Virus record (IMG/VR): IMGVR_UViG_3300020269_000018 | Location: 1-37,502 of that record | From: a virus | Taxonomy: Duplodnaviria; Caudoviricetes | Direction: 5' to 3' (one strand) | DNA: 37,502 bases | In this document: positions 756-35,741 of the stretch, piece by piece | Layout: every line of letters starts with the position of its first letter | Numbering within the stretch: the first letter of the stretch is position 1 | The notes under the pieces: model-generated | Told to the model about the DNA's origin: nothing | Seen by the model: only the letters and a program-made list of their open reading frames with translations | Databases searched by the model: none | Program-made: the position numbers and the translations under genes

Positions 756-904
756 ATTGTTGGCATTGTGGGACTCCATTAATTTGGGGAGGTGATGAGG
801 ATGCAAGTGAAGATAGTGAATATCTAATTATTACTAATTTAACTTGTCCTAAATGCAAGTCTTATGTAGAAGTTTCTAAACCAAAAGATGCAACCGTTAC
901 CTAA
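752..904 (+). CDS. Small zinc-finger protein, 50 aa (MNCWHCGTPLIWGGD...NLTCPKC)
   Basis: Translated by hand; ATGA overlap with the terS stop; two CxxC pairs; overlaps the terL start. Confidence 0.7.
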   Translation: MNCWHCGTPLIWGGDEDASEDSEYLIITNLTCPKCKSYVEVSKPKDATVT

Positions 905-2600
905 AAAACTACAAGACTTTAGATATTTTTTAATTGTTACTTGGAGACATTTAAATCTTCCTGATCCTACTCCTGTTCAACTAGATATTGCTGAATATCT
1001 ACAAAGTGGTACTAGACGTAAAATTTTACAGGGATTTAGAGGTGTTGGTAAAAGCTGGATAACCTCTACTTATGTCGTATGGAAACTACGAATGAATCCG
1101 CAGTTAAAATTTTTAGTTGTTAGTGCAAGTAAAAACAGAGCAGACGATTTTACGACTTTTACTATGCGTTTGATCAATGAAATGCCAATATTATCTCCTT
1201 TAATACCGCAAGAACACCAAAGAAACAGCAAAATTAGTTTTGATGTTGCACCTGCAACTGCTTCTCATGCTCCTAGCGTTACTAGTAGAGGAGTTCTTTC
1301 ACAGATGGCAGGTAGTCGTGCAGACGAAATAATTGCAGATGACGTAGAAGTTCCAAATAATTCTTATACACAACCTATGAGAGACAAATTAGCGGAAGCT
1401 GTAAAAGAATTTGAAGCTATTTTAAAACCAAATGGCAATGTTACTTTTCTTGGGACACCACAAGTAGAAAATAGTTTGTATTTAACGCTAGAAGAACGTG
1501 GATATGAAACAAGAATATGGACAGCACGTTATCCAGAGTTAAAAAACAATTATGGAGATAGACTTGCTCCATTTATTAAAGAAAGACTAACTAATGAATT
1601 ATCTAAACCTAAAGATCCTGTAGATCCACAAAGATTTACTTCTGTAGATCTTATGGAACGTGAAGCATCTTATGGGCGATCTGGTTTTAACTTACAGTTT
1701 CAGCTAGATACAACATTATCTGATCAAGACAGATACCCATTAAAAATATCTGATCTTGTTATATCTTCTATAAACCAAGATTATGCACCTGAGAAAATCA
1801 TATGGTCTAATAATCCAGAATACGCTATACAAGATTTACCTTGCGTTGGGTTTAATGGTGATAGGTTCTACCGCCCTGCTCAAGAGTTTGGAGACTACAT
1901 TGAATATACAGGTAGTGTGATGTTTATCGACCCTTCTGGGAAGGGAAAAGATGCTACAGGCTATGCTTGTGTAAAGATGTTAAACGGTAATCTCTATGTT
2001 ACTGATGCAGGTGGACTGACAGGTGGTTATTCAGACTTAGTTTTAGAAAAATTATCTAAAATTGCAAGATTTAATAAAATAAATTCGATTTTAATAGAGC
2101 AAAACTTTGGTGGTGGTATGTTTGCTGAACTACTAAAACCATTTCTTATGAGATTTCACCCATGCGAAGTACAAGATGTAAGAAATAATAAGACTAAAGA
2201 ACTAAGAATTATTGATACTCTAGAACCTGTTATGAACTCTCATAGATTAATAATAGATCGCAAGGTTATAGAAAAAGATTTTAAATCTAATCAAGATGAA
2301 CCGCCAGAAAGACGATTAAAATTACAACTTGTTTATCAACTTAGTAGGATCTCTAGACATAGAGGTAGTTTAGTTAATGACGATATTATTGATGCCCTTG
2401 CTGGTGCTGTTGGTTACTGGACAGAATATATGTCCCAAGATGAAGAAAGGAATATTCAATCTAGAAAAGATGAATTATTAATGACTCATTTAAATAATTG
2501 GGGATCTGCTCTTAACTCAACTATTACTCAAACAGCTATGGGAATGTCTCCTCAACAAATAAGAAATTCTAATGTATCTGACAAAGGTTTTATAAGATAA
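888..2600 (+). CDS. Terminase large subunit (T7 gp19-like)
   Basis: Walker A FRGVGKS, Walker B IIADDVE, LGTPQ, nuclease IDPSGKGKD and DDIIDALA. Confidence 0.96.
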   Translation: MQPLPKKLQDFRYFLIVTWRHLNLPDPTPVQLDIAEYLQSGTRRKILQGFRGVGKSWITSTYVVWKLRMNPQLKFLVVSASKNRADDFTTFTMRLINEMPILSPLIPQEHQRNSKISFDVAPATASHAPSVTSRGVLSQMAGSRADEIIADDVEVPNNSYTQPMRDKLAEAVKEFEAILKPNGNVTFLGTPQVENSLYLTLEERGYETRIWTARYPELKNNYGDRLAPFIKERLTNELSKPKDPVDPQRFTSVDLMEREASYGRSGFNLQFQLDTTLSDQDRYPLKISDLVISSINQDYAPEKIIWSNNPEYAIQDLPCVGFNGDRFYRPAQEFGDYIEYTGSVMFIDPSGKGKDATGYACVKMLNGNLYVTDAGGLTGGYSDLVLEKLSKIARFNKINSILIEQNFGGGMFAELLKPFLMRFHPCEVQDVRNNKTKELRIIDTLEPVMNSHRLIIDRKVIEKDFKSNQDEPPERRLKLQLVYQLSRISRHRGSLVNDDIIDALAGAVGYWTEYMSQDEERNIQSRKDELLMTHLNNWGSALNSTITQTAMGMSPQQIRNSNVSDKGFIR

Positions 2601-2620
2601 TCTTATTAGGTACTACTATA

Positions 2621-2712
2621 GGATAAGTGACTGAGCAACACGCACTCTCCAAAGAACCTACAGGGTGTCATTTTAAAGCGGTGGTACACCCTATAGGTTC
2701 AACCTAATTTTT
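2621..2712 (+). ncRNA. Candidate trans-acting small RNA: 20-nt antisense head plus long hairpin
   Basis: 2621-2640 is complementary to five early-gene leaders; stem 2654-2668/2686-2700 pairs 14 of 15 bp; T-run at 2708-2712. No expression evidence. Confidence 0.5.
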
Positions 2713-3082
2713 CCCTACTTCTGCTTCTACTACGGAAAAATATTTGACACAAAAATCTGAAGAGGTTACGCATATAGTGGAAATGAATTTACCCCCATAG
2801 ACTATATAAAAAACTCAAAAAAAAACCCTAAAAACCTATAAAACCTTACTATGACTAAGTTTATAAATTACTAGTACTAATTTATGGGGTTTCTGGGGTG
2901 GTTCTGGTGAATTTTTAGACCATCTATATGTCTACATGATCGGTTAAAGGTGGGGTGGGTTAGCTATGGATTTAATAAAAAAAAAGAGAATAAAAAGAAA
3001 TAAAGTGTATTAGTAAAAGTAGTACAAAAAAATATTACTGTTTGTTAAGTTTTCGCTGAGATCCATTGGTATGACTGAACAT

Positions 3083-3096
3083 AGTACAAATGAACT
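3083..3096. promoter_or_regulatory. Putative cyanobacterial LexA-box-like operator AGTACAAATGAACT
   Basis: 13/14 match to the consensus AGTACWNWTGTACT (recalled); upstream of the first early gene. Confidence 0.4.
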
Positions 3097-3253
3097 AATC
3101 TACCTGATAAACGCTTTTTTAATTTTGTACTATTAAACAAACAACAAAAAAGAACTAATTATTAGCAATATTGATGATTTTTTTTAATTTATATGTAATA
3201 CTACTAATAGTAATTATTAATTAATTACTGTTGCTCAATTACTTATTAATCAA

Positions 3254-4213
3254 ATGACAGCATCCGCACCTAGAAAATCTAAAAAAGAGTTCGACCCAAA
3301 CAAAGGTTATGAAGAACTAGCAAACGACCTTATTTCAATAATGGAAAAAGGGGTCAACCCGTTCAGAAAAAGCTGGACTAGGGAGGCTCAACACACTAAC
3401 TTTGTAACTGGTGACGCTTACAACAACGGCAACTTAATTTGCTTAGAAATTGCAAGATTAACCAGAAATTACAAAAGTCCTTATTGGATGGGATTTGCTC
3501 AGGCTCGCTCATTCGGTCTATCTATTATTAAGGGTTCTAAAGGATCTATCATTCTACGCCCTGTAGCAATGAAGAAGCCTTTATTAGACGCAAACAATAA
3601 ACCAGTAAAAGACGCACTCGGAAATCCTGAGTTTACTTGCTGGACTATTTTTGTTCCCTGTCGTGTTTTTAATTTGGATTGTTTCCAGAAAACAGAAAAA
3701 TTAGAAAAAAGACTTGCTGAACTTAATAAAGAAGTAGCTGTTAATCATTCACCTATTAGTAGTAGAGAATCAAAAGCAATCGAACAAATTAATAATTATG
3801 TGACTACACATAATATTGATTTTGGCGAGGGCGGAAATTCTGCATATTACGATCCAGAAGCTGACTCTATAACTGTTCCTAATAAAGAAAGATTCTCTGA
3901 TTATTCAGAGTTTATTTCTGTTGCACTACATGAGTGTGTGCATTCATCAGGAGCAGACAAAAAAGGCAGATTAGCCAGAGTCGGCATTACTGATAAAAAA
4001 GCGGTGTTTGGTTCAGAACTTTATGCAACCGAAGAATTAATTGCGGAAGCGGGTTCTTATCTTTGTTGTAATGAATTACAGATAGATTCTAATAATGAAT
4101 CACACGCTTCTTATCTTGATTGCTGGATTAAGCGATTAAGAAAAGAGCCTAAACACTTATTAACCGTCATTGGTCACTCTGTAAAAGCTAAGAACTTAAT
4201 ATTAGGTTCTTAG
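3254..4213 (+). CDS. ardC: ArdC-like antirestriction ssDNA-binding protein with zincin-like C-terminal domain
   Basis: PFRKSW, N.VTG..Y...N, WMGF.QA, G..I.KGSKG, VFN, AYYDP..D.I.VP, LHECVH, Y..EELIAE, H.SYL..WI..L. Confidence 0.9.
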   Translation: MTASAPRKSKKEFDPNKGYEELANDLISIMEKGVNPFRKSWTREAQHTNFVTGDAYNNGNLICLEIARLTRNYKSPYWMGFAQARSFGLSIIKGSKGSIILRPVAMKKPLLDANNKPVKDALGNPEFTCWTIFVPCRVFNLDCFQKTEKLEKRLAELNKEVAVNHSPISSRESKAIEQINNYVTTHNIDFGEGGNSAYYDPEADSITVPNKERFSDYSEFISVALHECVHSSGADKKGRLARVGITDKKAVFGSELYATEELIAEAGSYLCCNELQIDSNNESHASYLDCWIKRLRKEPKHLLTVIGHSVKAKNLILGS

Positions 4214-4225
4214 TCCTTTTTAGAT

Positions 4226-4268
4226 TCTCTCTTATTAGCAGTAATTTATTTACTGCTAGTAAAAGAGA
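4226..4268 (+). other. Long intergenic stem-loop, possible RNase III processing site
   Basis: TCTCTCTTATTAGCAGTAA / TTACTGCTAGTAAAAGAGA: 19-bp stem with one mismatch and one G-U, 5-nt loop, no U-tract. Confidence 0.55.
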
Positions 4269-4314
4269 TTCTTTTATAAGATCTCTTGTTGCTCACGTTA
4301 TCCAATTTTTATTT

Positions 4315-4653
4315 ATGGAAACAAAAAACATTAATGAGTTTACTAAAAAACTTATTGATAAAGACATAGCAATGTTCCATTATTGCTTACGCAAAGAATG
4401 GACTAGACTAAGTGATTTTCAAGAATCACTAGAGCGGGATTTTAAACCGCATGAAGTTCCAACTAGAACTTTTAGGGATAATGTCCATAACAGGACTACA
4501 ACCCTATTACAAGAAGTCAGACTAGAACTTCAGTACCTTGAAAACTTAATACATTACTGCGAGGAGTTCTTTGAACATCCTAAAGAGACTGAATACCATT
4601 GTTTTAGAACAGAACCCGAAAAGGGGACTAGTCACATAAACAATACATATTAA
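4315..4653 (+). CDS. Hypothetical early protein, 112 aa
   Basis: ORF track; position in the early operon. Confidence 0.7.
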   Translation: METKNINEFTKKLIDKDIAMFHYCLRKEWTRLSDFQESLERDFKPHEVPTRTFRDNVHNRTTTLLQEVRLELQYLENLIHYCEEFFEHPKETEYHCFRTEPEKGTSHINNTY

Positions 4654-4668
4654 GTCCCTCCAGAATCG

Positions 4669-4697
4669 CCTAGAACAGCCCTTAAATCTGTTCTAGG
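4669..4697 (+). other. Intergenic stem-loop
   Basis: CCTAGAACAG / CTGTTCTAGG perfect 10-bp inverted repeat between genes. Confidence 0.55.
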
Positions 4698-4733
4698 TAT
4701 CTTTATACCCTTACTATTTACACTTTTCTAATT

Positions 4734-4907
4734 ATGGAAAAAACAACTTATGCTGATTATTTGGCAATGTCAGAAAGTTTTAACGACTGGTTAAAACAAG
4801 TCCCTTTTGGTTTTTGGATTAAAGGGATGAAAGTTAACAAAGATAGATCTGTTACTTTCATATTTAAAAACTCTTTAGACTCTGAAAGGTGGCTAACTGA
4901 AAAATGA
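4734..4907 (+). CDS. Hypothetical early protein, 57 aa (MEKTTYADYLAMSESFNDWLKQVPFG...)
   Basis: Translated by hand; fills the gap; ATGA coupling to the next ORF. Confidence 0.6.
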   Translation: MEKTTYADYLAMSESFNDWLKQVPFGFWIKGMKVNKDRSVTFIFKNSLDSERWLTEK

Positions 4908-4981
4908 CTAGTTTTATTATCTGGGGTTGCATTGCAACCCTTTTATATATCTTTTTAAAAAACACTATCAACCATTATTAA
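4904..4981 (+). CDS. Possible 25-aa hydrophobic peptide (MTSFIIWGCIATLLYIFLKNTINHY)
   Basis: ATGA overlap upstream; stop lies 1 nt before ATG4983; one TM-like stretch. Confidence 0.45.
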   Translation: MTSFIIWGCIATLLYIFLKNTINHY

Positions 4982-4982
4982 A

Positions 4983-5219
4983 ATGAATTTATTTGAAGCA
5001 GTACCAAACATTGTTAAAGAAGAGTTCGAGGGCGTTAACATTAACGACTTAACACACTTTGAACTTCTTAAATACATCACACAAATTGAAGTGAGAGTTT
5101 GGGAAAACATCAGCCTAACACCTAACCCTTTTAATAGATCTCAAGTTGCTTTAATGATCCAGAACGCAACTAATTTATTAAAAGAAAACCCCGAAAATTA
5201 TGATGATTTACTGGGCTAG
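4983..5219 (+). CDS. Hypothetical early protein, 78 aa
   Basis: ORF track; followed by a terminator. Confidence 0.7.
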   Translation: MNLFEAVPNIVKEEFEGVNINDLTHFELLKYITQIEVRVWENISLTPNPFNRSQVALMIQNATNLLKENPENYDDLLG

Positions 5220-5234
5220 GTAAACGCAAAATTT

Positions 5235-5263
5235 AAACCTCTAGTATTACTAGGGGTTTTTTT
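5235..5263 (+). terminator. Rho-independent terminator
   Basis: CCTCTAGT-ATT-ACTAGGGG followed by T7. Confidence 0.75.
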
Positions 5264-5285
5264 ATTGCCAATTTTTATTAAATGT

Positions 5286-5314
5286 TTGCAATATTGTATA
5301 CATTCTGCTAGGTT
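5286..5314 (+). promoter_or_regulatory. Host sigma70-type early promoter
   Basis: TTGCAA-17 bp-TAGGTT with TG extension; predicted start near 5321. Confidence 0.6.
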
Positions 5315-5343
5315 AGGTAGGCTCAGTATACTTTTTCTTTATT

Positions 5344-5943
5344 ATGTCAGCACACTTAACCGATCAGGACTGCTTAAACGCCCTTGCAACATTGTATGGG
5401 GAGTTTTATAAATCTGATGATCCGCAAAGAGCATTAGACCGTGCATATTATAATGCACCAACCACACACAAATTAGATAATTGGGAGTGTGAAAGGATTG
5501 CTAGGTTGCTTTTACATCAAGCAAGCGAAACTCATAAGGGGTTAGCACTTCATAAGGTAGTCTTTGACCACCTACTGGAAGCTAATGTTAATAGCTTAAA
5601 GTACCTATACCCTAGAGATGAAGATGCAAGTCCAACTGAAAGGATTTGGTATAACAACTACGAGTTTAAAAAATCATCAACTGTTACAAAATGGGTAGCA
5701 GAAAAAGACGCTAAAGGTTTATTGCAATTATGGGGGATGCTCAAAGGTTGGGAGTACCAAAGCTGTGAAGATCCAACATGGCAAGATGATGCAGTCTTTC
5801 AAATGAAGTTCCAAATCCAGTACGCAATATTAAACTTATTGGAAGATAAGTTTTGCGGTGAAGATAATGTTTGGACTAGTTGGCAAGACCCACAACTAGA
5901 TAAAGACGTTATTAACATTTCAGATATGTTTGCTATGCATTGA
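5344..5943 (+). CDS. Hypothetical early protein, 199 aa (N..SL..LYP and YQSCE motifs)
   Basis: ORF track; has its own promoter and terminator. Confidence 0.8.
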   Translation: MSAHLTDQDCLNALATLYGEFYKSDDPQRALDRAYYNAPTTHKLDNWECERIARLLLHQASETHKGLALHKVVFDHLLEANVNSLKYLYPRDEDASPTERIWYNNYEFKKSSTVTKWVAEKDAKGLLQLWGMLKGWEYQSCEDPTWQDDAVFQMKFQIQYAILNLLEDKFCGEDNVWTSWQDPQLDKDVINISDMFAMH

Positions 5944-5968
5944 TGTATAGTAACCATAGAGCAACTAC

Positions 5969-5994
5969 AACCATCCGCAAGGGTGGTTTTTTTT
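5969..5994 (+). terminator. Rho-independent terminator
   Basis: CCATCC-GCAA-GGGTGG followed by T8; GNRA loop. Confidence 0.8.
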
Positions 5995-6016
5995 ATTGGT
6001 AAATTTATAAATATAC

Positions 6017-6045
6017 TTGCAATATTATATATATGCGGTTACACT
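6017..6045 (+). promoter_or_regulatory. Host sigma70-type early promoter
   Basis: TTGCAA-17 bp-TACACT; predicted start near 6052. Confidence 0.7.
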
Positions 6046-6073
6046 AGGTTTGCTCAGTTTATTTTATCTAACA

Positions 6074-6250
6074 ATGGCAGACATTAAGTCTTTTAAAGAC
6101 AATCTAGTATGGCGAACTGATCAAAGAATCATAGGCCAAAAGCAATTACTAGAAGAACACACTAGAGCAATAGCTCAAATTGAAAAAACTATTGCAGAAC
6201 TTAAAGAACTCAAAGAGGTTTTAAAGGGGGTGCAAAATGAAAAAAGATAA
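6074..6250 (+). CDS. Small coiled-coil early protein, 58 aa (start revised from 6017)
   Basis: The TTG at 6017 is the -35 box; first in-frame ATG after the promoter is 6074. Confidence 0.65.
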   Translation: MADIKSFKDNLVWRTDQRIIGQKQLLEEHTRAIAQIEKTIAELKELKEVLKGVQNEKR

Positions 6251-6449
6251 TAGAAAATTTATTCCAATACCCAAAGATGAGTACTTTAAAAAGATTACAA
6301 AGTACCAATACGAATGTCCTTTTGATCGTACACTTTCATGCCAAAGTGTGATTAGAAAAGACCCATCTGATGGTCACTCTTATTTCATTGCATCAATAAA
6401 GATGCGAGTGCCTATTAATAAAAGAGATTGGAGTGCAGAAGATGAATAA
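6237..6449 (+). CDS. Hypothetical early protein, 70 aa
   Basis: ORF track; SD-like GGGGG upstream. Confidence 0.65.
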   Translation: MKKDNRKFIPIPKDEYFKKITKYQYECPFDRTLSCQSVIRKDPSDGHSYFIASIKMRVPINKRDWSAEDE

Positions 6450-6744
6450 AAAAATCTTTGCTTACAAATCAGATTTACATGGTAGATGGTTTTGGCTATC
6501 TGATGATTACGATCTTAGGTCGCATCCATTTATAGAGAAGAAACTATTTACTAATGTTTATATGCCTATAGCAGAAACTACAGGCGATTACGTTTGTGAT
6601 TGGTCTTGCTTTGATGACCTCGACATAGAGCAACATCAAGAACTAATAAAAATACAAAAAACTTTATTTTGTTTTGAACAAATGCAGAAGCAGTTGGACA
6701 ATACAGAACTAAAACACATTCACCTTATACACCTAAAGGATTAA
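6442..6744 (+). CDS. Hypothetical early protein, ~100 aa
   Basis: ORF track 6433-6744; ATG6442 with GGAG upstream preferred. Confidence 0.65.
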   Translation: MNKKIFAYKSDLHGRWFWLSDDYDLRSHPFIEKKLFTNVYMPIAETTGDYVCDWSCFDDLDIEQHQELIKIQKTLFCFEQMQKQLDNTELKHIHLIHLKD

Positions 6745-6749
6745 AAAAA

Positions 6750-7367
6750 ATGAAAACAACCACTTTCACAAAGCAGCAAATAGTAGAAAAATTTGTTGAC
6801 GTTGAACTAGAAGATGCAGGTTACAACAATCAAGACTTTTATCTATCTTCAGAAAATAGATTACGTTATGTACTTGCAACTGTTGAATTACCAGAACTTT
6901 ATGGAGAACAAAAATTACCAGAAGGTACAGAAAAAAATAAATTTTATAATTGCATTATTTTCCCTGAAGAAGGCAAAGACTTTGTAGTTAAAAATCCAGA
7001 GTTATTACAACAACTTATGGATATGGATAATGATTCTTTGCATGATTATGTTGAAGATAATGACTATGAATGGTTAGGAGCAGACTTTGAGCATATAGAA
7101 GAATACTTATGTTTTGTTTCTGATATGCAAGATGAGTGGCAATTTATAGCAGGGGGAACACACAATGATGATGAGTATATGGACATTATTAAACAATCTC
7201 GAAACAATCAAAGAACTCATAATAAATTTAAATCGGCAATAGAAATACTTATTAGTTATGTTCCAGAAAATGACTATGTAAAACAAAATATTTACAGAAA
7301 ATTAAACCATCAAGGGATTGATACTGAATTTTTAGATGGGTTAGGTTTGATTAAGGAGGATAAATAA
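6750..7367 (+). CDS. Acidic hypothetical early protein, 205 aa
   Basis: ORF track; AAGGA upstream; D/E-rich centre. Confidence 0.75.
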   Translation: MKTTTFTKQQIVEKFVDVELEDAGYNNQDFYLSSENRLRYVLATVELPELYGEQKLPEGTEKNKFYNCIIFPEEGKDFVVKNPELLQQLMDMDNDSLHDYVEDNDYEWLGADFEHIEEYLCFVSDMQDEWQFIAGGTHNDDEYMDIIKQSRNNQRTHNKFKSAIEILISYVPENDYVKQNIYRKLNHQGIDTEFLDGLGLIKEDK

Positions 7368-7474
7368 TGCAAGAAGAATATGATTATTGTGATAGATGCG
7401 ATTGCATTCTGCGATATGACGAGGGCGATATTTGTTGCTCTTGTGAAGATTTAAAAAAGGAGGAACAAAACTAA
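7367..7474 (+). CDS. Mini zinc-finger-like peptide, 35 aa (MQEEYDYCDRCDCILRYDEGDICCSCEDLKKEEQN)
   Basis: Strong SD AAGGAGG; TAATG coupling at both ends; CxxC...CxxC. Confidence 0.65.
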   Translation: MQEEYDYCDRCDCILRYDEGDICCSCEDLKKEEQN

Positions 7475-7707
7475 TGAGCGAACAACAAGAAAAACTAGAC
7501 AAAGGAGTTGATAGGCTAATGGACTATTTCTCTAATCAGTACGATACAAGAAGCTCTTATTCTGCATTACTTGATAAACTTACAGATAATCCAGATCAAA
7601 CGATAAGAGAATTTTTTGAAAGTTGGGCTGATGATGATGGTCTAGATGATGATTTTGATGATGATGTTGACTATGGTGAAATGAGGGAGGTAGAAGAAGA
7701 TGCTTAA
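7474..7707 (+). CDS. Highly acidic small protein, 77 aa
   Basis: SD AAGGAGG; tail DDDGLDDDFDDDVDY. Confidence 0.7.
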   Translation: MSEQQEKLDKGVDRLMDYFSNQYDTRSSYSALLDKLTDNPDQTIREFFESWADDDGLDDDFDDDVDYGEMREVEEDA

Positions 7708-7906
7708 ATGCCCTTATTGTGATAGTACTGATAACGTTTGTGTCAGTACTATTAATAGAGCCAACATCAACGGTAAACAACGCCAAGTTAATTACGTTTG
7801 GCGTAGGCGTAAATGTTCTAATTGTGGTCAAAAATTTACCACGCATGAAAAGACAGAACAAGAATGGACTAAAGAAAAATATTTAAATTTATTAGAAAAA
7901 CTTTAA
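7700..7906 (+). CDS. NrdR-like zinc-ribbon protein without ATP-cone
   Basis: KCPYC...RRRKCSNCGQKFTTHE matches the NrdR N-terminal signature; only 68 aa. Confidence 0.8.
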   Translation: MLKCPYCDSTDNVCVSTINRANINGKQRQVNYVWRRRKCSNCGQKFTTHEKTEQEWTKEKYLNLLEKL

Positions 7907-7918
7907 TTTTTTATTACT

Positions 7919-8776
7919 ATGCTCAGTCACAAATCTAAAGGTACGAAAGTGCCTACTCTTTCGCAAGCTACTCATACCTATTACAAGCGAAGGCTCAACG
8001 GTCTAACTAGTGCGGATAATTATCTAAAAACAATGAAGATAATTATTAAAATTTTAGGTGATAAACCAGTAGATAAAATTGGCGTTACTGACGTTAATAA
8101 ACTGATTGATCACCTAGTCCAGAAAAAGAAAAAGAACAGCACTATAAACTCATACAAGGGTAGATTAGAAACTACTCTTAGGGAGATGGTACAAGCTGGT
8201 CATATAGATCCATTAACAGCAACAAAAAATTTAAGAGAAGGTGATAAAGATATACATATATTAAATGCTGATATGGAAGATAAATTAATATATAAATTTA
8301 AAGAATTAGATTTTTTATTACATAAACAAATTTCATTAATAGGTTTAGAAACTGGTCTAAGATGGTGCGAAATGTTTGAGGTTAGAAAAAGAAATATAGA
8401 TTTAAATTATGGTCAAATTACTATTGAATCAAGAAAAAATTATACACAATTAACTATACCTTTAACAGAAAAAGCAGCATCATTAATATACGATCATCTA
8501 GGTTTTTGTGATGATAATGATAGGGTTTTTCCTTTTGATAATAAATGGAAATATGGAGGGTGGAATATTGCTAGGCGTGATCTAGGTTACGAAAAAACAG
8601 AATGGTATGTACCACATATAACAAGACATACAGCGTGTACTCGTATGTTGCAGAAGGGTGTACCGCTACCAGTAGTGTCTAACTGGTTAGGTCATAAAAG
8701 CATAGCAGTTACTATGAGGTACGCCCATTTTGTACCGTCAATAATGAATCAGTATAAGGAGCTACTCAATAAATGA
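7919..8776 (+). CDS. int: Tyrosine recombinase / integrase
   Basis: TGLR, HITRH, WLGH, TMRYAH; catalytic residues look intact. Alternative GTG start at 7949. Confidence 0.92.
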   Translation: MLSHKSKGTKVPTLSQATHTYYKRRLNGLTSADNYLKTMKIIIKILGDKPVDKIGVTDVNKLIDHLVQKKKKNSTINSYKGRLETTLREMVQAGHIDPLTATKNLREGDKDIHILNADMEDKLIYKFKELDFLLHKQISLIGLETGLRWCEMFEVRKRNIDLNYGQITIESRKNYTQLTIPLTEKAASLIYDHLGFCDDNDRVFPFDNKWKYGGWNIARRDLGYEKTEWYVPHITRHTACTRMLQKGVPLPVVSNWLGHKSIAVTMRYAHFVPSIMNQYKELLNK

Positions 8777-8871
8777 ACCGCAAAGAAAAAATACAAAAAG
8801 CGAAAGAACGCATCAAAGAATTAGAAACCTTAATTAAACATTGGGAGCAACCTAAAAATGAATCTAAATGA
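8773..8871 (+). CDS. 32-aa coiled-coil peptide (MNRKEKIQKAKERIKELETLIKHWEQPKNESK)
   Basis: ATGA overlap with the int stop; overlaps the RNAP start. Confidence 0.55.
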   Translation: MNRKEKIQKAKERIKELETLIKHWEQPKNESK

Positions 8872-11266
8872 CCTACAAAAACAACTAGAAAATGATGTAA
8901 AACAAGCAGCAATTACATCAAGAAATAATAAAAATAATAAGAATATACAAAATAAAAATGAATCAGAAAATGATTATGCCAGAGCCATCATGGTTACTAG
9001 TATTAAATATTTTACTGAGGCATTAAAAAAATTTTGTGATGAATCTATTAAAGGTCAAGCAGGGGTAAAAGCAACAAGTTCTAAAGTTTTAAATTTATTT
9101 GATGATTTAGATCTAGTTAGCTTTCTTGTTTTTAAGGTAATACTAGATCGTGCTAGTCATATCAGTACAGTTACTTCTGTTGCAATGGCAATAGGGCAAA
9201 GGTTAGATGACGAGTTGAGATATATATATTACGAGCAAGAAGATAAAAAATATTTTAAAAATATGATTAAACATATGAATGATACACAACATAGTAGATA
9301 CCGCAGATCTTTATTAGTTTATTCATTTAATAAAAAGGGTTATAGATATTTAGGTTTAACCAAAGAAGAACGTCTTAGGTTGGGTTTTAAAATGATAGAC
9401 ATAATGACTATGCAAATTGGCCTTACAAAAATATCTAGAGGTAGAGGTAGTAAATATTTACAGTTAACTGACAAAATGATTGAGTGGATTGATAGACAAA
9501 AATACAATAAGTTTGTAGCTCTACCTACATACCTACCTTGTGTAGTAAAACCAAAGCGGTGGACTGATCCATACAATGGTGGTTTTCATTATAATTTTAA
9601 AAATTTAAAGATACTTAAAACAGATAATGATTACCAACTTCTTAGATTAAAAGAAGAAAATCCAATACATTTTTATAATGCTATTAATGGATTACAAGAG
9701 ACAGGATTTAAGGTTAATAAAAAAGTACTAAAGGTTGCATTAAAACTATTTGAAATGAACGTTGAGGTAGGTTGTATGGCGAGTGCAGAGCAAAGACCAT
9801 TACCACCTAAACCCTATGATATTGCCACTAATGAAATAGCTAGAAAAAAATGGAGACAAGAAGCAAAAATTGTACATGAATATAATCAACACACATTGTC
9901 TAAAAGATTACAAACACTTCTGATTTTAAATACAGCAGAAAAATTTAAAGACAATATTTTTTATCATGTAATGCAAGCGGATTTTAGAGGTAGGATTTAT
10001 TCTGTAACCGCTCATTTTAATCCGCAAGGTAACGATCTAGCTAGAGCATTACATTTGTTTGAGAAGCCTAGCAAGATTGAATCATATAAAGAATTAGAAT
10101 ATTTAAAACTTCATGGTGCAAATTTACAGGGTATTACTGGTACATTTTATAATCGTGTAAATCTTGCTGATACTTATTTTAAAGCTAATAAAGAAACAAC
10201 CTACGAAATGTCATTTAATGGCGAACATAGATATACAGTAACGCCTGAGATACAGGGTAAAAATCTTTTTGAACTGGTTGATAAAGATCCATTAGAACAC
10301 ATAGATTTATGGGCGAATGAACCAAAACCTTTTCAGTTTTTAGCTTACTGTTTTGAACGTGCAGCATATCAAAGACACATAACAAAATTTAGTGAAGCTA
10401 AATATAAATCACATTTACCAATTTATTTAGATGGTACTAATAATGCTTATCAACATATAGCCTGTCTTTGCAAAGATCATAAATTAGCAAAAGCTGTAAA
10501 TCTAGCACCACAAACACTAAGACCAGAGGATCTATATACAAAAGTATTAGACCAGCTTATGTCTAATTTAACTAGTTATTTTTTACATAAAAATGAATTA
10601 ATAACTGATTGGCTGAATGAAAAAATTGACAGAAAATTTATAAAGAAACCTGTATTAATGATTCCATACGGTGGTTCTGATTTTGGAATAATAAAATACA
10701 TAGAGCAATATAAGTGGCGAGAACCAAAGACACAAGAGCATTGCAAAATTTTATGTAAATACATACGCATATCATTACTACAGGTTGCACCAAGTATTGA
10801 TCATGTAATTACTTATCTAAAATCTGCACTAGGATTAGGTCTTACTGATGGATGGATAACGCCAAGTGGTTTTTATGTACAACAAAAATATTTAAAAAAT
10901 AAAAGTAAACAGGTAAAAACTAAATTAGGTAACAGTAGTATTAGATTATCAGTCTGTGAATATACGGATAAACCTGACACAAAGAAATCTAATAATTCTA
11001 TATGTGCAAACTTTGTACAAAGCTATGATGCAGCTAATGTACATCTTGCAATATCAAAAGCATTAGATAAAAAAATTAAACAATTTATTACTGTACATGA
11101 TAGCTATGCTACGACTTGTGGACAGATAGAAGAGTTTATTGAAGTAGTTAAAGAAGCCTTTGTAGAGTTATATATTAATAACGATTGTCCACTATATAAG
11201 AACTTACCACCAACAGGTAATTTTGATGTCAAGGAAGTTTTGAAAGCGATATATATCTTTAGCTAG
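8858..11266 (+). CDS. T7-like single-subunit RNA polymerase
   Basis: DFRGRIY, PQGND, PFQFLA, LDGTNNAYQH, R...KKPVLMIPYG, NFVQSYDA, VHDSY, C-terminal YIFS. Confidence 0.96.
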   Translation: MNLNDLQKQLENDVKQAAITSRNNKNNKNIQNKNESENDYARAIMVTSIKYFTEALKKFCDESIKGQAGVKATSSKVLNLFDDLDLVSFLVFKVILDRASHISTVTSVAMAIGQRLDDELRYIYYEQEDKKYFKNMIKHMNDTQHSRYRRSLLVYSFNKKGYRYLGLTKEERLRLGFKMIDIMTMQIGLTKISRGRGSKYLQLTDKMIEWIDRQKYNKFVALPTYLPCVVKPKRWTDPYNGGFHYNFKNLKILKTDNDYQLLRLKEENPIHFYNAINGLQETGFKVNKKVLKVALKLFEMNVEVGCMASAEQRPLPPKPYDIATNEIARKKWRQEAKIVHEYNQHTLSKRLQTLLILNTAEKFKDNIFYHVMQADFRGRIYSVTAHFNPQGNDLARALHLFEKPSKIESYKELEYLKLHGANLQGITGTFYNRVNLADTYFKANKETTYEMSFNGEHRYTVTPEIQGKNLFELVDKDPLEHIDLWANEPKPFQFLAYCFERAAYQRHITKFSEAKYKSHLPIYLDGTNNAYQHIACLCKDHKLAKAVNLAPQTLRPEDLYTKVLDQLMSNLTSYFLHKNELITDWLNEKIDRKFIKKPVLMIPYGGSDFGIIKYIEQYKWREPKTQEHCKILCKYIRISLLQVAPSIDHVITYLKSALGLGLTDGWITPSGFYVQQKYLKNKSKQVKTKLGNSSIRLSVCEYTDKPDTKKSNNSICANFVQSYDAANVHLAISKALDKKIKQFITVHDSYATTCGQIEEFIEVVKEAFVELYINNDCPLYKNLPPTGNFDVKEVLKAIYIFS

Positions 11267-18025: not shown

Positions 18026-18288
18026 TGCCTAAAAAAAAATCTGTTTCACTTAGAAAAGAACATAAAAGTAAAACAGGTGGCCTTACTAAAAAAGGGCGTG
18101 AAAAAGTTAATAGAGAAACAGGTAGCAATTTAAAAGCACCTGTAACTGGAAAAGTAAAACGTGGTAGTAAAGCAGCTAAAAGACGTAAATCTTTTTGTGC
18201 AAGAATGAAAGGTGTTAAAGGTGCTACCAGTAAAGGCGGTAAGCTAACAAGAAAAGGATTAGCTCTTAAAAAATGGAAATGTAATTAA
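18025..18288 (+). CDS. Highly basic conserved phage protein, 87 aa (GGLT..GR...GSNLKAP, RRKSFCARM)
   Basis: TAATG coupling to the scaffold gene; K/R-rich. Confidence 0.75.
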   Translation: MPKKKSVSLRKEHKSKTGGLTKKGREKVNRETGSNLKAPVTGKVKRGSKAAKRRKSFCARMKGVKGATSKGGKLTRKGLALKKWKCN

Positions 18289-18554
18289 TCAACAAAATTT
18301 AATTCTTTTTTTGCTGCTGCTAATTCTTTAGCTTCAGTAATTTTAGTTAATTTAACTGTACTATTTACCATTTTTTTAGGATCAAAATCTTTAGGATCAG
18401 CTATTAAATATTCATCAGTAGGAATCAAATAAGTCATATCACCACCTGTATTAGCAAGACCTCTACCCCAAGATTCTGTTTTACCTGTATAGGTAATCTT
18501 ATAAATATCTGTCATTACCTTATGGTAATTGTCAAGAATTTTTCCTTTTGCCAT
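18285..18554 (-). CDS. Hypothetical protein after tail fibre, possible fibre chaperone
   Basis: GGAGG SD; last gene of the - strand operon; function by position only. Confidence 0.6.
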   Translation of the reverse strand: MAKGKILDNYHKVMTDIYKITYTGKTESWGRGLANTGGDMTYLIPTDEYLIADPKDFDPKKMVNSTVKLTKITEAKELAAAKKELNFVD

Positions 18555-18556
18555 AA

Positions 18557-21500
18557 TTAATAACCTCCAAATGATAAATGTGGTTTAGTGAAACCAGCAA
18601 CTTGTCCCCTTAAACTACCTGCTTGATTCCAAGAATTGTAGCCACCTGTATAGAAGTTACCGCCTTTTGTAATTATTTGCCAACCTCGTTGAGCATCAGT
18701 TGATCCTGTCCAACAGAAACCGTAAGGTTTTAATTGTTCTGGTTGATGGAACATTGGTACAAATGATGTGACATAATTTTGTGTAGCTTCCATGTCATCA
18801 GCATTATCATCTTCAAAGTCATACATTACAGGTATTTGCATACTACCTGCCATAAACATATTTCCAAATTCATCAAGCAAACATACTCTTGCGTAAGTTT
18901 CATCACTATATTGAGCAGGTATAATATCTACAATTTTACCCATTGGGAACTTCTGGTAGTTAGCTCCACCTACTTGTGTTATTGAAGCCCAAGTCATATC
19001 TGTTCCTTCATTTGGTCTGTTGTTATTACCAGTACTAGATTCGTAATCTCCAAAATCTCTAAACTTAATTTCAGCACCAAACCAATTTCCTTGAGCAGAA
19101 GCAGTTGCACCTGATGATGTTGATGTATTAGTACCTTGTTGACCATAAGTATTAAATCCAGTTGCGTATATTTTTTGAGGTAAACCAGTAGTTCCACCAT
19201 CAGTTATTAACCATATTGTTGAGTTTTCAGTATTACTACACGCTATGTAAACTACCTTTTGACTATCAGAGTTCCATAAAGTACTTGAGTTTGTAAGCAA
19301 TGTTGGTGTAGTGACGTTATTACTTTGTGATGTTTGGTATACACCAGAGTTATGTCCATAACCTTCTTGATAACCTGCATAATATACTTTGCCTTCATCT
19401 GTTAAGAACCATGTTGAACCATTATCTTCATCACCTTGATTACATACAACATGAACTATCTTTTTATTTTGTATAGGTGAACCTGCTACTGCTGTTATTT
19501 CTACAGGTGATGTTTGTTGAACTGTATTTCCTATACCTAAACTACCATGTGCATTTCTTCCAGTACCCCATAACTTACCTGATTCAGTAATAAAGAAAGC
19601 TGAATTATGTTGATAACCTGTACCAGTTATATAAATAATTTTTTCATTATTAAATGTACTTGCTGCATATCTTTTAGCGTAATAATTAGAAGTTGTAGAA
19701 CCATCACCTAATTGACCATAATTATTGTAACCAAATCTATATACGTTTCCTTCTGTATCTAAGAACATTTGGAAACCATTAAAGTCATAAGTTGTTGAGT
19801 CACCAGTATGTCCAACAGAAGCAAACACTTGTGTAATCTTAGGTATATTCGCACCTGTTAATTCTGTATTTGATTCATCATAAAAAGTCATTGGTGCAAC
19901 AACATATTGTTTATTGTTTGTAGTACCATCACCTTTTCCTCCGTCATTACCATAACCAGAGAACATACAAATACCGTTTTCTAGTAAGTGATACCCTTTA
20001 GTTAAATTTTTATGTATCTGTATAGTTTTTGGTTTAGTTACGTTAGTGCTGCCATCAGCATTTCTATAACCTAAATCATTACCATTAAAATCAGTTAAGA
20101 ATTTAGCATAAGTTGAATCGCCAGCTAAACATTTCTTCCACCATAAAGGCATACGATATTGTGACATCAATGCGTATGATGATACGTTATTAGGATTCAT
20201 ACCATAGCCAGCACCACCACCGTATGTATAACCATTAGCATCATTGTAACCGTTACCCCATTGGAAATAATTACCTTTTTCTGTAATAACTCCACCTTGT
20301 CTATAGCCTTGCATAACATGACCATATTTATATCCCCTACCACTATTTTTTAAATATGCAGGTACTGGAAGAATAGACTCTGTATATACATTGCGATCTT
20401 GATTAGGGTAGTTATGTCTTGGAGGTACTACATTTGCATTTAATGGTGCTACTAGATTGTCAAACCCTTCAGTTGAACCGCCTTTCCAGACAGCACCAAA
20501 TGACATATTTTTAACAGTAATAGTAATTATGTCTGCTTGATTTGCTTCATCACGAATAACAACTGTATCTGGTGTAGCTGCTGTAGGACTAAACTTTATA
20601 GTTCCTCCATTAGTAATAGATGCAGGTGATAAGCCAGCAGTTAATCTACCTCCACTACCAGCACCAGAGTAACCAGCAGCAGCAGGGTCTTTAATAGAAT
20701 AAGTTAAACCATTTGCAGGGAATGAAAAATTATAACTTCTACCTCTAACTAATTTGATATTAGTATTAGCTCCTGTAAAATTCTGTCTTACTATTGTTGG
20801 GGATGTTCCTGTAATGACACCATGTCCCATAGCAGAGTGAACAGAGCATTTATATTTAGTTATTGATGAAGCATATTTAGGTGCTACAAAAGTAACTGTT
20901 GCTCCTGATGAACCTGCTGTACCACTTGAACTATATCCGTCTGTAACTTCGTAATCAGTACCACTAATAGTGACATAAAACTTTAATACATGACTTGTAT
21001 TACTACTATCAGATACATCAAATGTATAAGTACTGCCAGCTTTTATTGCAATAGCTAATCTATCTGTACCATTTAGATGAAATTGGTTTTGACCACTTAC
21101 TGCTGCTACTGTAACTGTATAATTAGTTGTTGTGGCAGCAGGTGAATCATCAGCATATAACTGTGCAATTCTTACATTATTAAAATTAGTTGGAACATAA
21201 TGTGTATTACTATCAGTTTCTACACTTTCGTCTGGATCTGCTTCTACTGTTAAGTTTGATCCAACTACACCGATAGGTAATCTTTTAGTTGTAACATCAT
21301 CCTTATCTTTAGTTATTAAATCTCCTGATGTTGTCAAAACACTTGCTGCTGGTGCAGGTGTCATTATCTGCCACTTACTGCTAGTGTCAGGTGCTGGTGC
21401 TGGTGGTACTGTTATATTTTGGTTATATCCACCTAAGAATATTAATACATATAATGCATTATTATAATTAACTACATCACCTTTTTGATAGCTAGTTGTT

Positions 21501-21712
21501 GAACTGAAAGTGCCTTTAAAGTTAAGGCCAACTGTCATAAATTCAAATAAAGAACTTCCTTTTGGATCAGTTACATTATTACTTGGTACATTAGCTACAA
21601 CAACAAATGTTGAACCTCCAAACTCTACAACGTCATCTATTTCATAAGCGGTTGAAGATTGCCAAGCTCCCTTCCATTGAAACTTAAGTTTGCCTAAATC
21701 AATTTGTGCCAT
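18557..21712 (-). CDS. Second tail fibre / receptor-binding protein with RCC1-like repeats
   Basis: IDLGKLKF.WKG.W...Y..DDVV N-terminus; repeated G.VY..GYN.YGQLG.G motifs; CSVHSAM motif. Confidence 0.8.
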   Translation of the reverse strand: MAQIDLGKLKFQWKGAWQSSTAYEIDDVVEFGGSTFVVVANVPSNNVTDPKGSSLFEFMTVGLNFKGTFSSTTSYQKGDVVNYNNALYVLIFLGGYNQNITVPPAPAPDTSSKWQIMTPAPAASVLTTSGDLITKDKDDVTTKRLPIGVVGSNLTVEADPDESVETDSNTHYVPTNFNNVRIAQLYADDSPAATTTNYTVTVAAVSGQNQFHLNGTDRLAIAIKAGSTYTFDVSDSSNTSHVLKFYVTISGTDYEVTDGYSSSGTAGSSGATVTFVAPKYASSITKYKCSVHSAMGHGVITGTSPTIVRQNFTGANTNIKLVRGRSYNFSFPANGLTYSIKDPAAAGYSGAGSGGRLTAGLSPASITNGGTIKFSPTAATPDTVVIRDEANQADIITITVKNMSFGAVWKGGSTEGFDNLVAPLNANVVPPRHNYPNQDRNVYTESILPVPAYLKNSGRGYKYGHVMQGYRQGGVITEKGNYFQWGNGYNDANGYTYGGGAGYGMNPNNVSSYALMSQYRMPLWWKKCLAGDSTYAKFLTDFNGNDLGYRNADGSTNVTKPKTIQIHKNLTKGYHLLENGICMFSGYGNDGGKGDGTTNNKQYVVAPMTFYDESNTELTGANIPKITQVFASVGHTGDSTTYDFNGFQMFLDTEGNVYRFGYNNYGQLGDGSTTSNYYAKRYAASTFNNEKIIYITGTGYQHNSAFFITESGKLWGTGRNAHGSLGIGNTVQQTSPVEITAVAGSPIQNKKIVHVVCNQGDEDNGSTWFLTDEGKVYYAGYQEGYGHNSGVYQTSQSNNVTTPTLLTNSSTLWNSDSQKVVYIACSNTENSTIWLITDGGTTGLPQKIYATGFNTYGQQGTNTSTSSGATASAQGNWFGAEIKFRDFGDYESSTGNNNRPNEGTDMTWASITQVGGANYQKFPMGKIVDIIPAQYSDETYARVCLLDEFGNMFMAGSMQIPVMYDFEDDNADDMEATQNYVTSFVPMFHQPEQLKPYGFCWTGSTDAQRGWQIITKGGNFYTGGYNSWNQAGSLRGQVAGFTKPHLSFGGY

Positions 21713-21714
21713 AG

Positions 21715-22710
21715 TTAAATGTCAAGAACTAAATGTCCAGCTAATCCATAAGCTCTATTAACAGGATTATTAATCGCTAAAGTGAATTTAGGAGCATTAG
21801 GGGAAGTTGTACTAAGGATGTCCTCGCCTAAGAAATAAGCGTGACTTACTCCATTCTGTATAAAATCCTCTGCTCTGTAAATAGTGCTGTTTGGATCGTT
21901 AGCATTATTATAAACCATTCGTAACATTCCGCTACTTAGTCTTTGAAAACCTACAAAGATTGAAGTTCTTGCTAAGTTCTGTGCTGTACTTGCAGAATTG
22001 CTTGCAGTAACAGCACTTGCAGCAGCCTGACTTGCACTTGCAGCAGCTTGTGTAGCTGATGAAGCAGCAGCACTTGCACTAGCACCAGCTTGTCCTATAG
22101 CTGTATTTGCATTGGCTATACCTGCATCTAACTGACCTTTATTAACAGCATCACTATTGGCAGTACCATCAGCAAGATTTGTAATTTTATTAGAGTTTGC
22201 ATTTAGTGAACCAGCCATAGGTACACTTCCGTCAGTTTTTACAAATCCAGCAATATTTGTATCTACATAACCTTTTGTTGCTGCATCTTGTGGATCAACT
22301 GGTGTTAATAAATTTTTTAAAATTTTATTATTTGCAGTTAAATTTGTACCTAAAGGAACAACACCTGACGCTGTATCATCTGCATTTTCTTGCAAAGCAA
22401 ATAATATTTGTTCTGTATTAGTATCTAAATCTGATTCTGTTAAAACACTACCATCTTGGAAATCAACCTTTTTTTGACTAATATCTGTATTTCTTTGAAA
22501 TCTTATAGCAGCACCATTAGGAGGTATTTCTGATGTTATAAACTCAACATTCTGTCCAGAAATAGTGTAATGCGTACCTATCGTTTTAGATACCGCATTT
22601 ACAGTTACATCTATTTCTTCATCTGATAAAAAAGCAAATGATATTGCAAAAGTGTCTGATGTTCCGTTACCTTGATGCGTTACAAATGAAGGGGTATTAT
22701 TAGTAGCCAT
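21715..22710 (-). CDS. Tail fibre (T7 gp17 N-terminal domain), short adaptor type
   Basis: GNG...F.I.F.FL, RNT, VDFQDGSVLTESDLD, DAATKGYVD and DAVNKGQLD repeats, Ala/Ser coil. Confidence 0.88.
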   Translation of the reverse strand: MATNNTPSFVTHQGNGTSDTFAISFAFLSDEEIDVTVNAVSKTIGTHYTISGQNVEFITSEIPPNGAAIRFQRNTDISQKKVDFQDGSVLTESDLDTNTEQILFALQENADDTASGVVPLGTNLTANNKILKNLLTPVDPQDAATKGYVDTNIAGFVKTDGSVPMAGSLNANSNKITNLADGTANSDAVNKGQLDAGIANANTAIGQAGASASAAASSATQAAASASQAAASAVTASNSASTAQNLARTSIFVGFQRLSSGMLRMVYNNANDPNSTIYRAEDFIQNGVSHAYFLGEDILSTTSPNAPKFTLAINNPVNRAYGLAGHLVLDI

Positions 22711-22712
22711 AG

Positions 22713-31348: not shown

Positions 31349-32053
31349 TTAAGCTGCCCTCAAGGTTGCATAAGTACCTGCACTTTGACCCACAGATTTA
31401 AGTATTGCTCCAAACAATGTCGGTGCATTATTAGCAGCATTTGTTGCTCTAGTAATCTGGTCTTTAGCTAAATTATACCTATTATCTCTTCTTGCTCTAG
31501 CTCCGTCTATATCTCTTTGTGTTTGTGATAACAAACTGTCTCTTTCTTGTTCTATTCCTTCAACTAAATTAGATGTTTGATTTTCTATGTCTTGTAGCAA
31601 TAAAGCAATAGTATTACCTGATTTTTCTGTTGCTCTCATAGCACCTTCTAACTGTAAGCCTTGTATTTTTGTTGTCATAATTTTCTGTTTTTTAGCTGCA
31701 TCTTTTTCTTTTTGTAATGCTAATATTGCTCTTTCTTGATCAGCTTTTGCCTGTTCAGCATTTCTAATCATTTCTAATGAAGATCTATAAATACCTCTTG
31801 TTTGATCAAATATTAGTTTTCTTTGTTGAATAGTTGAGAAAATACTAGTTCCTAAATTTAAACCTGCTGATAGTAAAAATGGTTTAGCTGCTGCACCAAG
31901 ACCTAAAAAACTACTTGCGGTAGCTGCTGTAGTGGCTGCTGTGGCTGCGGTTGTCGCTGCTGCTGTGGCTGCTGTAGCACCTGCTGCGGCTGCGGTTGTG
32001 GCTGCGGTTGTACCTGTTACTGCTGGTGCAGCTAATCCAAGACCTAAACACAT
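31349..32053 (-). CDS. Internal virion protein, gp14-like
   Basis: MC start, hydrophobic Ala/Gly N-terminus, coiled coil, synteny. Confidence 0.75.
   Translation of the reverse strand: MCLGLGLAAPAVTGTTAATTAAAAGATAATAAATTAATAATTAATASSFLGLGAAAKPFLLSAGLNLGTSIFSTIQQRKLIFDQTRGIYRSSLEMIRNAEQAKADQERAILALQKEKDAAKKQKIMTTKIQGLQLEGAMRATEKSGNTIALLLQDIENQTSNLVEGIEQERDSLLSQTQRDIDGARARRDNRYNLAKDQITRATNAANNAPTLFGAILKSVGQSAGTYATLRAA
31915..32012 (-). repeat. Low-complexity Thr/Ala codon repeat in the gp14-like gene
   Basis: Degenerate GCN/ACN tandem encoding TTAATTAAAAGATAATAAATTAATAATTAATA. Confidence 0.8.
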
Positions 32054-35739: not shown

Positions 35740-35741
35740 AG

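Follow-up and report, generated by a model that had tools for sequence, protein, structure and literature searches.

Genome and Right-End Locus

The IMG/VR record IMGVR_UViG_3300020269_000018 (37.5 kb, 98% complete, 32% G+C) represents a T7-like podovirus, and we analyzed its positions 1 to 37,502, a stretch of 37,502 nt that we refer to as the window. Directly 3' of its terminase large subunit gene (terL) lies a predicted non-coding RNA, the head of which is complementary to the start regions of five early genes, including those for an ArdC-type anti-restriction protein and a tyrosine integrase. Profile searches of the open reading frames (ORFs) identified a terminase, RNA polymerase, primase/helicase, integrase, and ArdC, but no DNA polymerase gene was found among the window ORFs, and no polymerase-sized ORF lies between the primase (12560) and the exonuclease (14191). 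The closest cultured relative is Prochlorococcus phage P-SCSP2 (82% identity for terL and 36% for the RNA polymerase), which PMC9860041 places in the MPP-C clade. With a T7-like RNA polymerase, no DNA polymerase gene, and P-SCSP2 as its nearest relative, the phage has the traits of this P-SCSP2 type, and this kinship, together with the 32% G+C, points to Prochlorococcus as the host. On the contig, terL is followed by a 650-bp non-coding gap and then by the early genes, so the region described here spans the point where the right and left ends of the genome meet, and the RNA and its targets would lie at opposite ends of a linear T7-type genome.

For comparison we used 152 de-duplicated loci out of 210 loci with a terL 3' end. 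These were classed into clades A (that of the window), B, C, and D by their right-end word alone, and leaders were counted afterwards. The features of the right-end locus, and the gene for the putative polymerase behind its transcript, are:

888..2600, + strand: terL (PHROG 38, E=6e-102), with the RNA gene directly 3'
2604..2620, + strand: T7-type (phage RNA polymerase) promoter word at the terL end, ending in CTATA, with G2621 as +1
2621..2798, + strand: predicted non-coding RNA of about 178 nt, drawn from the bounds of a metatranscriptome contig and a 92-nt fold
2621..2650, + strand: 5' hairpin with the antisense head; the seed TGAGCAACA (2632-2640) lies in and around its loop
2654..2700, + strand: second hairpin (RNA stem or DNA cruciform), variable in sequence with the helix kept; both-side changes in 4/7 consensus pairs among 8 sequences
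2751..2798, + strand: conserved 3' element of the RNA, in 17/17 A, 14/14 B, 21/22 C, and 61/89 D loci
8858..11266, + strand: T7-like RNA polymerase gene (PHROG 414, E=2e-160), the likely maker of the RNA

A Predicted Transcript Behind terL

The promoter word, TATAG followed by a purine-rich start, is present in 129 of the 152 relatives. In the form [CG]TATAG[GA], no more than 35 nt from the terL stop, it occurs in 17/17 loci of clade A, 14/14 of B, 98/99 of D, and 0/22 of C, and the remaining 23 loci (the 22 of clade C and L066, a truncated relative of these) have a variant word at the equivalent place. Judging from this sequence, the promoter is probably read by the phage polymerase, and its position corresponds to that of the T7 right-end promoter, in a layout of the T7 type. 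A 181-nt contig from the marine metatranscriptome run X1 is identical to 2621-2798 (0 differences), with two unaligned letters beyond 2621, and the same run also contains exact contigs of this phage's capsid gene and of 6966-7237. These are assembled contigs of a single study that carry neither strand nor true ends and may include DNA. Run X1, the only RNA run analyzed, had a share of 0.06; its uncovered regions were not taken as evidence, and depths were not used to rank genes. We regard the 181-nt contig as a hint of expression that is notable for having its boundary at the predicted +1.

The sequence-only reading had named 2621-2712 (92 nt) as the stretch to check for pairing, but the RNA is probably about 178 nt long, as the bounds of the contig suggest. 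Two hairpins are predicted for the first 92 nt (z=-3.2), and within the first of these ACTGAGCAACA is unchanged in 7/7 aligned clade-A loci, while one stem pair shows a compensatory change from G-C to A-U. The 3' element at 2751-2798 is similar to the sequence with which the P-SSP7 and CRP-227 records open and is probably the start of the terminal repeat. No Rfam family reached its gathering score within 2400-8200 and a tRNA scan was empty, and an origin of the word GCTCAG from a tRNA D-arm was dropped on these grounds.

Complementarity with Five Early Gene Starts

The sites that pair with the head, the genes that they precede, and the elements next to them are:

3229..3248, + strand: target 1, leader of ardC (ATG 3254); duplex -23.3 kcal/mol; partly in the 3' arm of a leader hairpin at 3205-3233
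3254..4213, + strand: ArdC-type anti-restriction protein (Pfam ArdcN, MPTase-PolyVal; PHROG 7245)
4287..4303, + strand: target 2, leader of ORF 4315-4653; duplex -19.8 kcal/mol; just 3' of a long hairpin at 4227-4270
TTGCAA at 5286, 17 nt, TAGGTT at 5309-5314, + strand: promoter before target 3, read by eye, conserved in relatives
5321..5337, + strand: target 3, leader of ORF 5344-5943; duplex -18.1 kcal/mol; 7 nt behind this weak host-type promoter
TTGCAA at 6017, 17 nt, TACACT at 6040-6045, + strand: promoter before target 4, read by eye, conserved in relatives
6050..6069, + strand: target 4, leader of ORF 6074-6250; duplex -20.3 kcal/mol; behind this weak host-type promoter
7700..7906, + strand: NrdR-like zinc-ribbon protein, a candidate DNA-binding regulator (PF22811, 31.7 bits against a cut-off of 27.2)
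7919..8776, + strand: tyrosine integrase (Pfam PF00589, E=1e-22)
7920..7936, + strand: target 5, integrase start codon and codons 2-4; duplex -20.8 kcal/mol; 11-nt perfect complement; compensatory change in the relative L162

Six related motifs, one in the RNA head and five at early gene starts, had been reported from the sequence-only reading, and the places and letters of all six are correct. At the first four targets the word GCTCA, hereafter the tag, begins 21, 24, 23, and 22 nt 5' of ATGs 3254, 4315, 5344, and 6074. The 11-nt perfect match claimed for the integrase ATG is likewise present, as TGCTCAGTCAC occurs exactly twice in the genome, at 7920 (+ strand, spanning the ATG) and at 2627-2637 (- strand). 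Paired with 2621-2645, the five named starts give duplex energies of -23.3 to -18.1 kcal/mol and rank 1-5 among 40 gene starts. The remaining 35 include the replication and structural gene starts that had been said to lack a copy, and the strongest of them pairs at -14.4 kcal/mol. A Mann-Whitney test of the five targets against the other starts gave p=2e-4, a value that is inflated because the targets had been picked beforehand. Independent of the choice of targets is the finding that their best partner begins at the promoter +1: none of 14,917 sampled 25-nt windows (step 5, both strands, self-complements left out) pairs with the five starts as well as 2621-2645 does. A plain count of the 11-mer across the genome, allowing at most two mismatches, found 8 occurrences where 6.4 were expected, and as this is not an enrichment, the signal is one of position and not of count.

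The tag is not on every early gene, as the early starts at 4734, 4983, 6237, 6442, 6750, 7367, 7474, and 7700 pair weakly with the head, and the start of the RNA polymerase gene pairs with it at -4.5 kcal/mol. At the four leaders the duplexes come to within 4-11 nt of the ATG, and the one formed with the integrase includes its start codon; the predicted net binding of the RNA to its targets is -10.7 to -16.8 kcal/mol. Computationally, the locus has a seed, conserved and predicted to be accessible, that is complementary to several unlinked mRNA starts, as in a multi-target small RNA. The sequence-only reading had further proposed that many deviations among the targets are C-to-T and keep G-U pairing. 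Such changes are common, with C-to-T at position 13 in 16/31 clade-A pairs and G-U-type changes at six clade-B targets of the GACTAGCT head, but an unpairable G-to-A directly after GCTCA occurs in 15/31 clade-A pairs. Since both kinds of change occur, wobble does not decide between RNA and DNA.

A sigma-70 scan recovered none of the early promoters listed above. In every clade early leaders are preceded by hairpins (3205-3233 and 4187-4270 in the window), many of them located behind a terminator, and these hairpins resemble the RNase III processing sites of T7 early mRNA.

The strand of the transcript matters for what the pairing would mean. A - strand RNA over the 2621 region would show the tag in leader sense and could be a decoy for an RNA-binding regulator, and both the unstranded contig and the - strand folds, which are equally or more stable in several loci, would allow for this. 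However, the contig boundary is the +1 of a + strand promoter, and no candidate RNA-binding protein was identified in profile searches, which leads us to regard a decoy as very improbable.

The Integrase Start as a Predicted Target

In clade A the integrase gene begins ATGCTCAG.., and in clade C it begins ATGCCCAGA.., each of which complements the loop of its own clade. The match takes in the integrase start codon and measures at least 10 nt in 7/8 clade-A loci and 8-10 nt in 3/4 clade-C loci, and in both clades the integrase is the best perfect target. In the relative L162 the RNA head carries a G-to-A and an A-to-T change, and a C-to-T in codon 4 of its integrase gene (His4 to Tyr) matches the G-to-A and gives a 12-nt match. 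A C-to-T in the RNA's own stem compensates the head change as well. Target 3 reads TACATTA in three loci of the L162 sub-clade.

A gene for an NrdR-like zinc-ribbon protein precedes the integrase in members of all four clades (7/9 loci checked), and in P-SSP7, HTVC120P, and CRP-227 a MarR regulator occupies this position. No gap is present near the integrase gene (7919-8776).

An integrase among the targets raises the question of lysogeny, and an immunity switch like P1 C4 or P4 CI, using the same RNA and the same sites, was one of two roles suggested in the sequence-only reading. The rank of the integrase as best perfect target in clades A and C would suit such a role, as would the variable lysis times of P-SCSP2 described in PMC9860041. 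The reading had also described a phage with no visible repressor, which holds insofar as profile searches found no classical repressor, but has to be qualified by the zinc-ribbon protein encoded upstream of the integrase. An immunity switch is nevertheless a poor fit. A promoter of the phage-polymerase type would stay silent in a quiet prophage, the polymerase gene is not among the targets, and a P-SSP7-like attP was searched for and not found. T7-like cyanophages of other clades, by the account given in PMC8776855, integrate without lysogeny or immunity. We therefore consider an immunity function unlikely; the other suggested role, an early shut-off, does fit.

Head and Tag Change Together Across Three Clades

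The sequence-only reading had suggested covariation between head and leaders as a check, and the heads of three clades do each match the leader tag of their own clade. Three unrelated early-leader tags were found: GCTCA in clade A (37/44 unique leaders), TTAGT in clade B (21/22), and CCCAG in clade C (42/59). Correspondingly, the loop is ACTGAGCAAC in clade A; GACTAACT or GACTAGCT in clade B, about 60 nt after +1; and TTCTGGG(C/T) in clade C, within a long hairpin 150-270 nt past the terL stop. Cross-occurrence of tags is 0-4 per class, and the A, B, and C tags are found in 1, 4, and 2 of 252 clade-D leaders. In a duplex matrix calculated for 27 loci out of the 152, clades A, B, and C each form a block on the diagonal, and clade D stays flat. 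Pairing in this matrix is -12.9 for A with A, against -7.9 to -9.4 with other clades; -10.6 for B with B, against -6.2 to -7.8; and -13.6 for C with C, against -7.4 to -9.5.

Compared with the leaders, the copy behind terL is always in the opposite orientation, and the same-sense word occurs there in only 0/17 A, 0/14 B, and 2/22 C loci. It is also predicted to be unpaired, with values of 0.62 (A), 0.95 (B), and 0.79 (C) compared with 0.45, 0.11, and 0.11 for its flanks. When the right-end regions were shuffled, the complement word arose 14 times in 5000 for clade A, 21 in 5000 for clade B, and 1075 in 5000 for clade C. As the clade-C word is short and common in shuffles, the case for this clade rests on the position of the loop and on the integrase match. 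A terL tree of 89 proteins (16 A, 11 B, 22 C, and a draw of 40 D) splits the four groups, with the A and B labels each on two well-supported branches. The clade assignment used here replaced a first one, in which a word outside the right-end region had placed 13 clade-D loci in C and the seed patterns accepted C-to-T changes alone; no claim about G-U pairing is drawn from that first assignment. A search with a degenerate pattern for the clade-C hairpin returned 0 viral contigs, although such loci were already known, and thus gained no extra clade-C loci. Within the first 60 nt after terL, clade-C loci (L068-L082) have a block of G-run/ACTATA/G-run that can also pair with their own leaders and that may be a second promoter or a G-quadruplex.

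These comparisons bear directly on the main rival explanation, in which the tag is a DNA operator at the early promoters and the integrase start, for example for the NrdR-like zinc-ribbon protein (7700-7906), with one inverted copy behind the right-end promoter. Operator copies would covary within a clade too, two of the tags are at predicted host-promoter start sites, and the zinc-ribbon gene sits where the three phages named above have their MarR regulator. But an operator would need neither the inversion of the extra copy nor its place in a predicted loop, both of which are seen in all three clades, where the copy is found at +7, at about +60, or 150-270 nt beyond the end of terL. Furthermore, none of the tags is palindromic, the extension of the match into the 5' stem differs from target to target, and the zinc-ribbon protein is also present in clade D, where the inverted copy is missing. 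An operator thus remains the best of the rivals, but a weakened one that we think improbable. Primase sites and host-factor boxes were rejected by reasoning, since neither would be expected to differ by clade and to keep a set distance of 12-28 nt from ATGs.

A Right-End Scaffold Without the Match

Clade D, with 99 of the 152 loci, keeps the promoter, the hairpins, and the scaffold of the right end, and a complement to its leaders is present in the right-end region in 7/99 loci only. Its leader word, GAACCAC/GAGCCAC-like and adjoining the ATG, occurs in 135/252 leaders (e.g., those of the P-SCSP2 [L084] genes at 892 and 36337) and is possibly a translation signal or a protein site. The right-end region of P-SCSP2 has no complement to its own leaders (rank 415 of 8,439 windows), and a search for antisense elsewhere in this genome gave just coding-region or self-complement matches. 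The absence of the match from clade D and, in their non-coding end regions, from five further isolates indicates that the system is lineage-restricted and builds on a right-end transcript. By analogy with T7, where the right-end region serves packaging, this transcript probably has an older role in packaging.

It could then be asked whether the right end is nothing more than an ordinary promoter with a packaging or terminal-repeat signal, its complementarity being due to chance or left over from an inverted duplication. The packaging use of such a region in T7 speaks for this, as does the conservation of the promoter, hairpins, and 3' element in the matchless clade D. Yet three unrelated tags each have their complement there, at the low shuffle frequencies given above for clades A and B; the seed is invariant while neighboring sequence varies; and there is a compensatory change in integrase codons. 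A pure packaging signal therefore seems to us highly unlikely.

Some clade-D loci (L017, L020, and others) have a right-end region filled by tandem short repeats, CACTAAG-like, 30-90 nt after terL. These are mostly absent in clade A and are like the short repeats near the T7 ends. In P-SCSP1u (L224) terL (34646-36699) is inverted, and the T7-type promoter and right-end scaffold stay on the + strand at ~36740.

A Probable Late Antisense Shut-Off of Early Genes

We favor the explanation that 2621-2798 encodes a late, trans-acting antisense RNA that is made by the phage polymerase and silences early genes and the integrase after lytic commitment, and we put its probability at roughly 0.6. In this scheme the host polymerase would read the early genes, as the weak sigma-70-like sites before targets 3 and 4 suggest, giving mRNAs whose leaders follow a promoter or hairpin and carry the tag 21-24 nt 5' of the ATG. 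The phage polymerase would then transcribe the RNA from the + strand promoter behind terL. The right end of the T7 genome enters the cell last, and with the RNA gene at this end and dependent on the phage polymerase, the RNA would appear late, once the polymerase has been made and the right end has entered. Its loop may nucleate on the tag (TGAGCAA with TTGCTCA) and then unzip into the 5' stem without Hfq. Loop-initiated pairing would suit the host, as Hfq is absent from most Prochlorococcus (PMC2518516). The duplex would grow towards the start codon and block loading of the 30S subunit, speed decay, or both, so that translation of the integrase, of ArdC, and of three early genes of unknown function, these together with the operon partners that follow them, would be blocked. 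The RNA would thereby provide negative feedback with a delay, bringing anti-restriction and host-takeover expression to an end and keeping replicating genomes from being integrated.

Pairing of this kind could also have the opposite effect, stabilizing or activating the leaders by masking RNase E sites or opening structure. Antisense duplexes that shield mRNA from RNase E have been described in phage-infected Prochlorococcus (PMC3113571), two tags are at predicted 5' ends, and some leaders are predicted to be folded. However, the duplex covers the integrase start codon and comes within 4-11 nt of the other ATGs, and it is hard to rationalize why a late-made RNA would raise early genes, making this a poor candidate in our view.

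The interpretation given in the sequence-only reading is partly supported. Its central claim, that one + strand RNA pairs over all five starts, is backed independently by the promoter +1 at 2621, the start of the contig, the matching in three clades, and the integrase change in L162. Several results weigh against a silencing RNA. Expression is represented by one unstranded contig from one study. The integrase site of L150 has an uncompensated change, and the integrase match is absent in L208 and in clade B (0/3). The G-U asymmetry is mixed and its test confounded, and swapping the two clade-A head variants over all clade-A targets gave no significant difference (p=0.16), with the variant head confined to one sub-clade and thus a single event. 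Among the other clades, the clade-C leader word is short and its complement frequent in shuffles, the best window in 2/8 clade-C loci is a G-run and not the loop, and one set of clade-B leaders (L107) is also a predicted partner of the clade-A RNAs, at -13.5 to -13.9 kcal/mol. Clade D as a whole, including the cultured P-SCSP2, is without a head/leader match, and no convincing match was found in the non-coding end regions scanned in P-SCSP1u, HTVC011P, P-SSP7, HTVC120P, and CRP-227.

More tentatively, and with somewhat less than even confidence, we suggest that a right-end packaging-promoter transcript has been turned into a master antisense switch over the early regulon and the integrase. This switch would replace the protein shut-off of T7 and commit the phage to lysis over integration, its seed and tag would have been rewritten together at least three times, and the different codes could mediate interference during co-infection.

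Comparison with Known Systems

We take the right-end promoter transcript of T7 to occupy the same genomic place, with a phage promoter behind terL reading into the terminal repeat, and we know of no regulatory pairing role for that transcript. In T7, the proteins gp0.7 and gp2 end early expression driven by the host polymerase, the same apparent purpose as that proposed here. No gp0.7/gp2-like shut-off protein was recognized among the early ORFs of the window, nor was any host-polymerase inhibitor in profile searches, which is weak evidence.

A close functional likeness is to C4 of P1/P7, a structured RNA that uses its loops to bind mRNA of the phage that encodes it, close to ribosome-binding sites, and in which changes in the loops set specificity between related phages (PMC5320573). 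Pairing of a loop with own mRNA near ribosome-binding sites is also what we find computationally, so the comparison with C4 and CI made in the sequence-only reading is apt as to how the RNA would work; it is a member of neither family, having no Rfam match, and C4 is not listed within 2400-8200 even at E<=10. There is one seed here instead of the a'/b' loops of C4, and the 5' end coincides with a promoter +1, arguing for a primary transcript (its ends are predicted), whereas C4 is a product of RNase P. The putative targets are five dispersed early genes including the integrase in place of an anti-repressor operon, and the function is likely a lytic shut-off and not immunity. CI of P4 is similarly a small phage RNA that represses its own genes by leader pairing, but it is cut from the leader that it controls and gives premature termination in the lysogen (PMC4825925). 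Here, in contrast, the targets are 0.6-5.3 kb away on the contig, and it is start regions that are covered.

Non-coding antisense transcription has also been described in LUZ100, an integrase-bearing phage of the Autographiviridae, but its RNA is cis-antisense to structural genes, and control of lysogeny is assigned to a MarR-like protein (PMC10134795). P-SCSP2 shares with this phage the integrase, the missing DNA polymerase, and the promoter and right-end scaffold, and differs in having leaders with GAACCAC beside the ATG and a right-end region without a complement. A literature search that covered subscription journals thinly turned up no description of a comparable RNA, either for cyanopodoviruses or for other Autographiviridae.

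MPP-C podoviruses are abundant and cosmopolitan in the surface ocean (PMC9860041). PMC8776855 presents the control of integration in T7-like cyanophages without a recognizable repressor as an open question, and in a 2024 review the role of non-coding RNA in lytic phages is described as still to be elucidated (PMC10884466). Both questions can be put to a direct test with a phage RNA for which five targets are named, a compensatory variant occurs in nature, and three seed/tag pairs are orthogonal to one another. If the proposed shut-off is correct, it would be a compact RNA switch, set off by the polymerase, for a host that is mostly without Hfq.

Genome Rearrangement

The block from capsid to tail fiber (18285-36888 in the window) is inverted compared with P-SCSP2. 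Inverted repeats flanking this block were looked for and none were found. The inversion also occurs in the independent contigs L145 and L149, and is therefore not an assembly error, as well as in L100 (clade B), L123 and L208 (clade C), and L218 (clade D), while 27 of 33 informative loci have the block in standard order.

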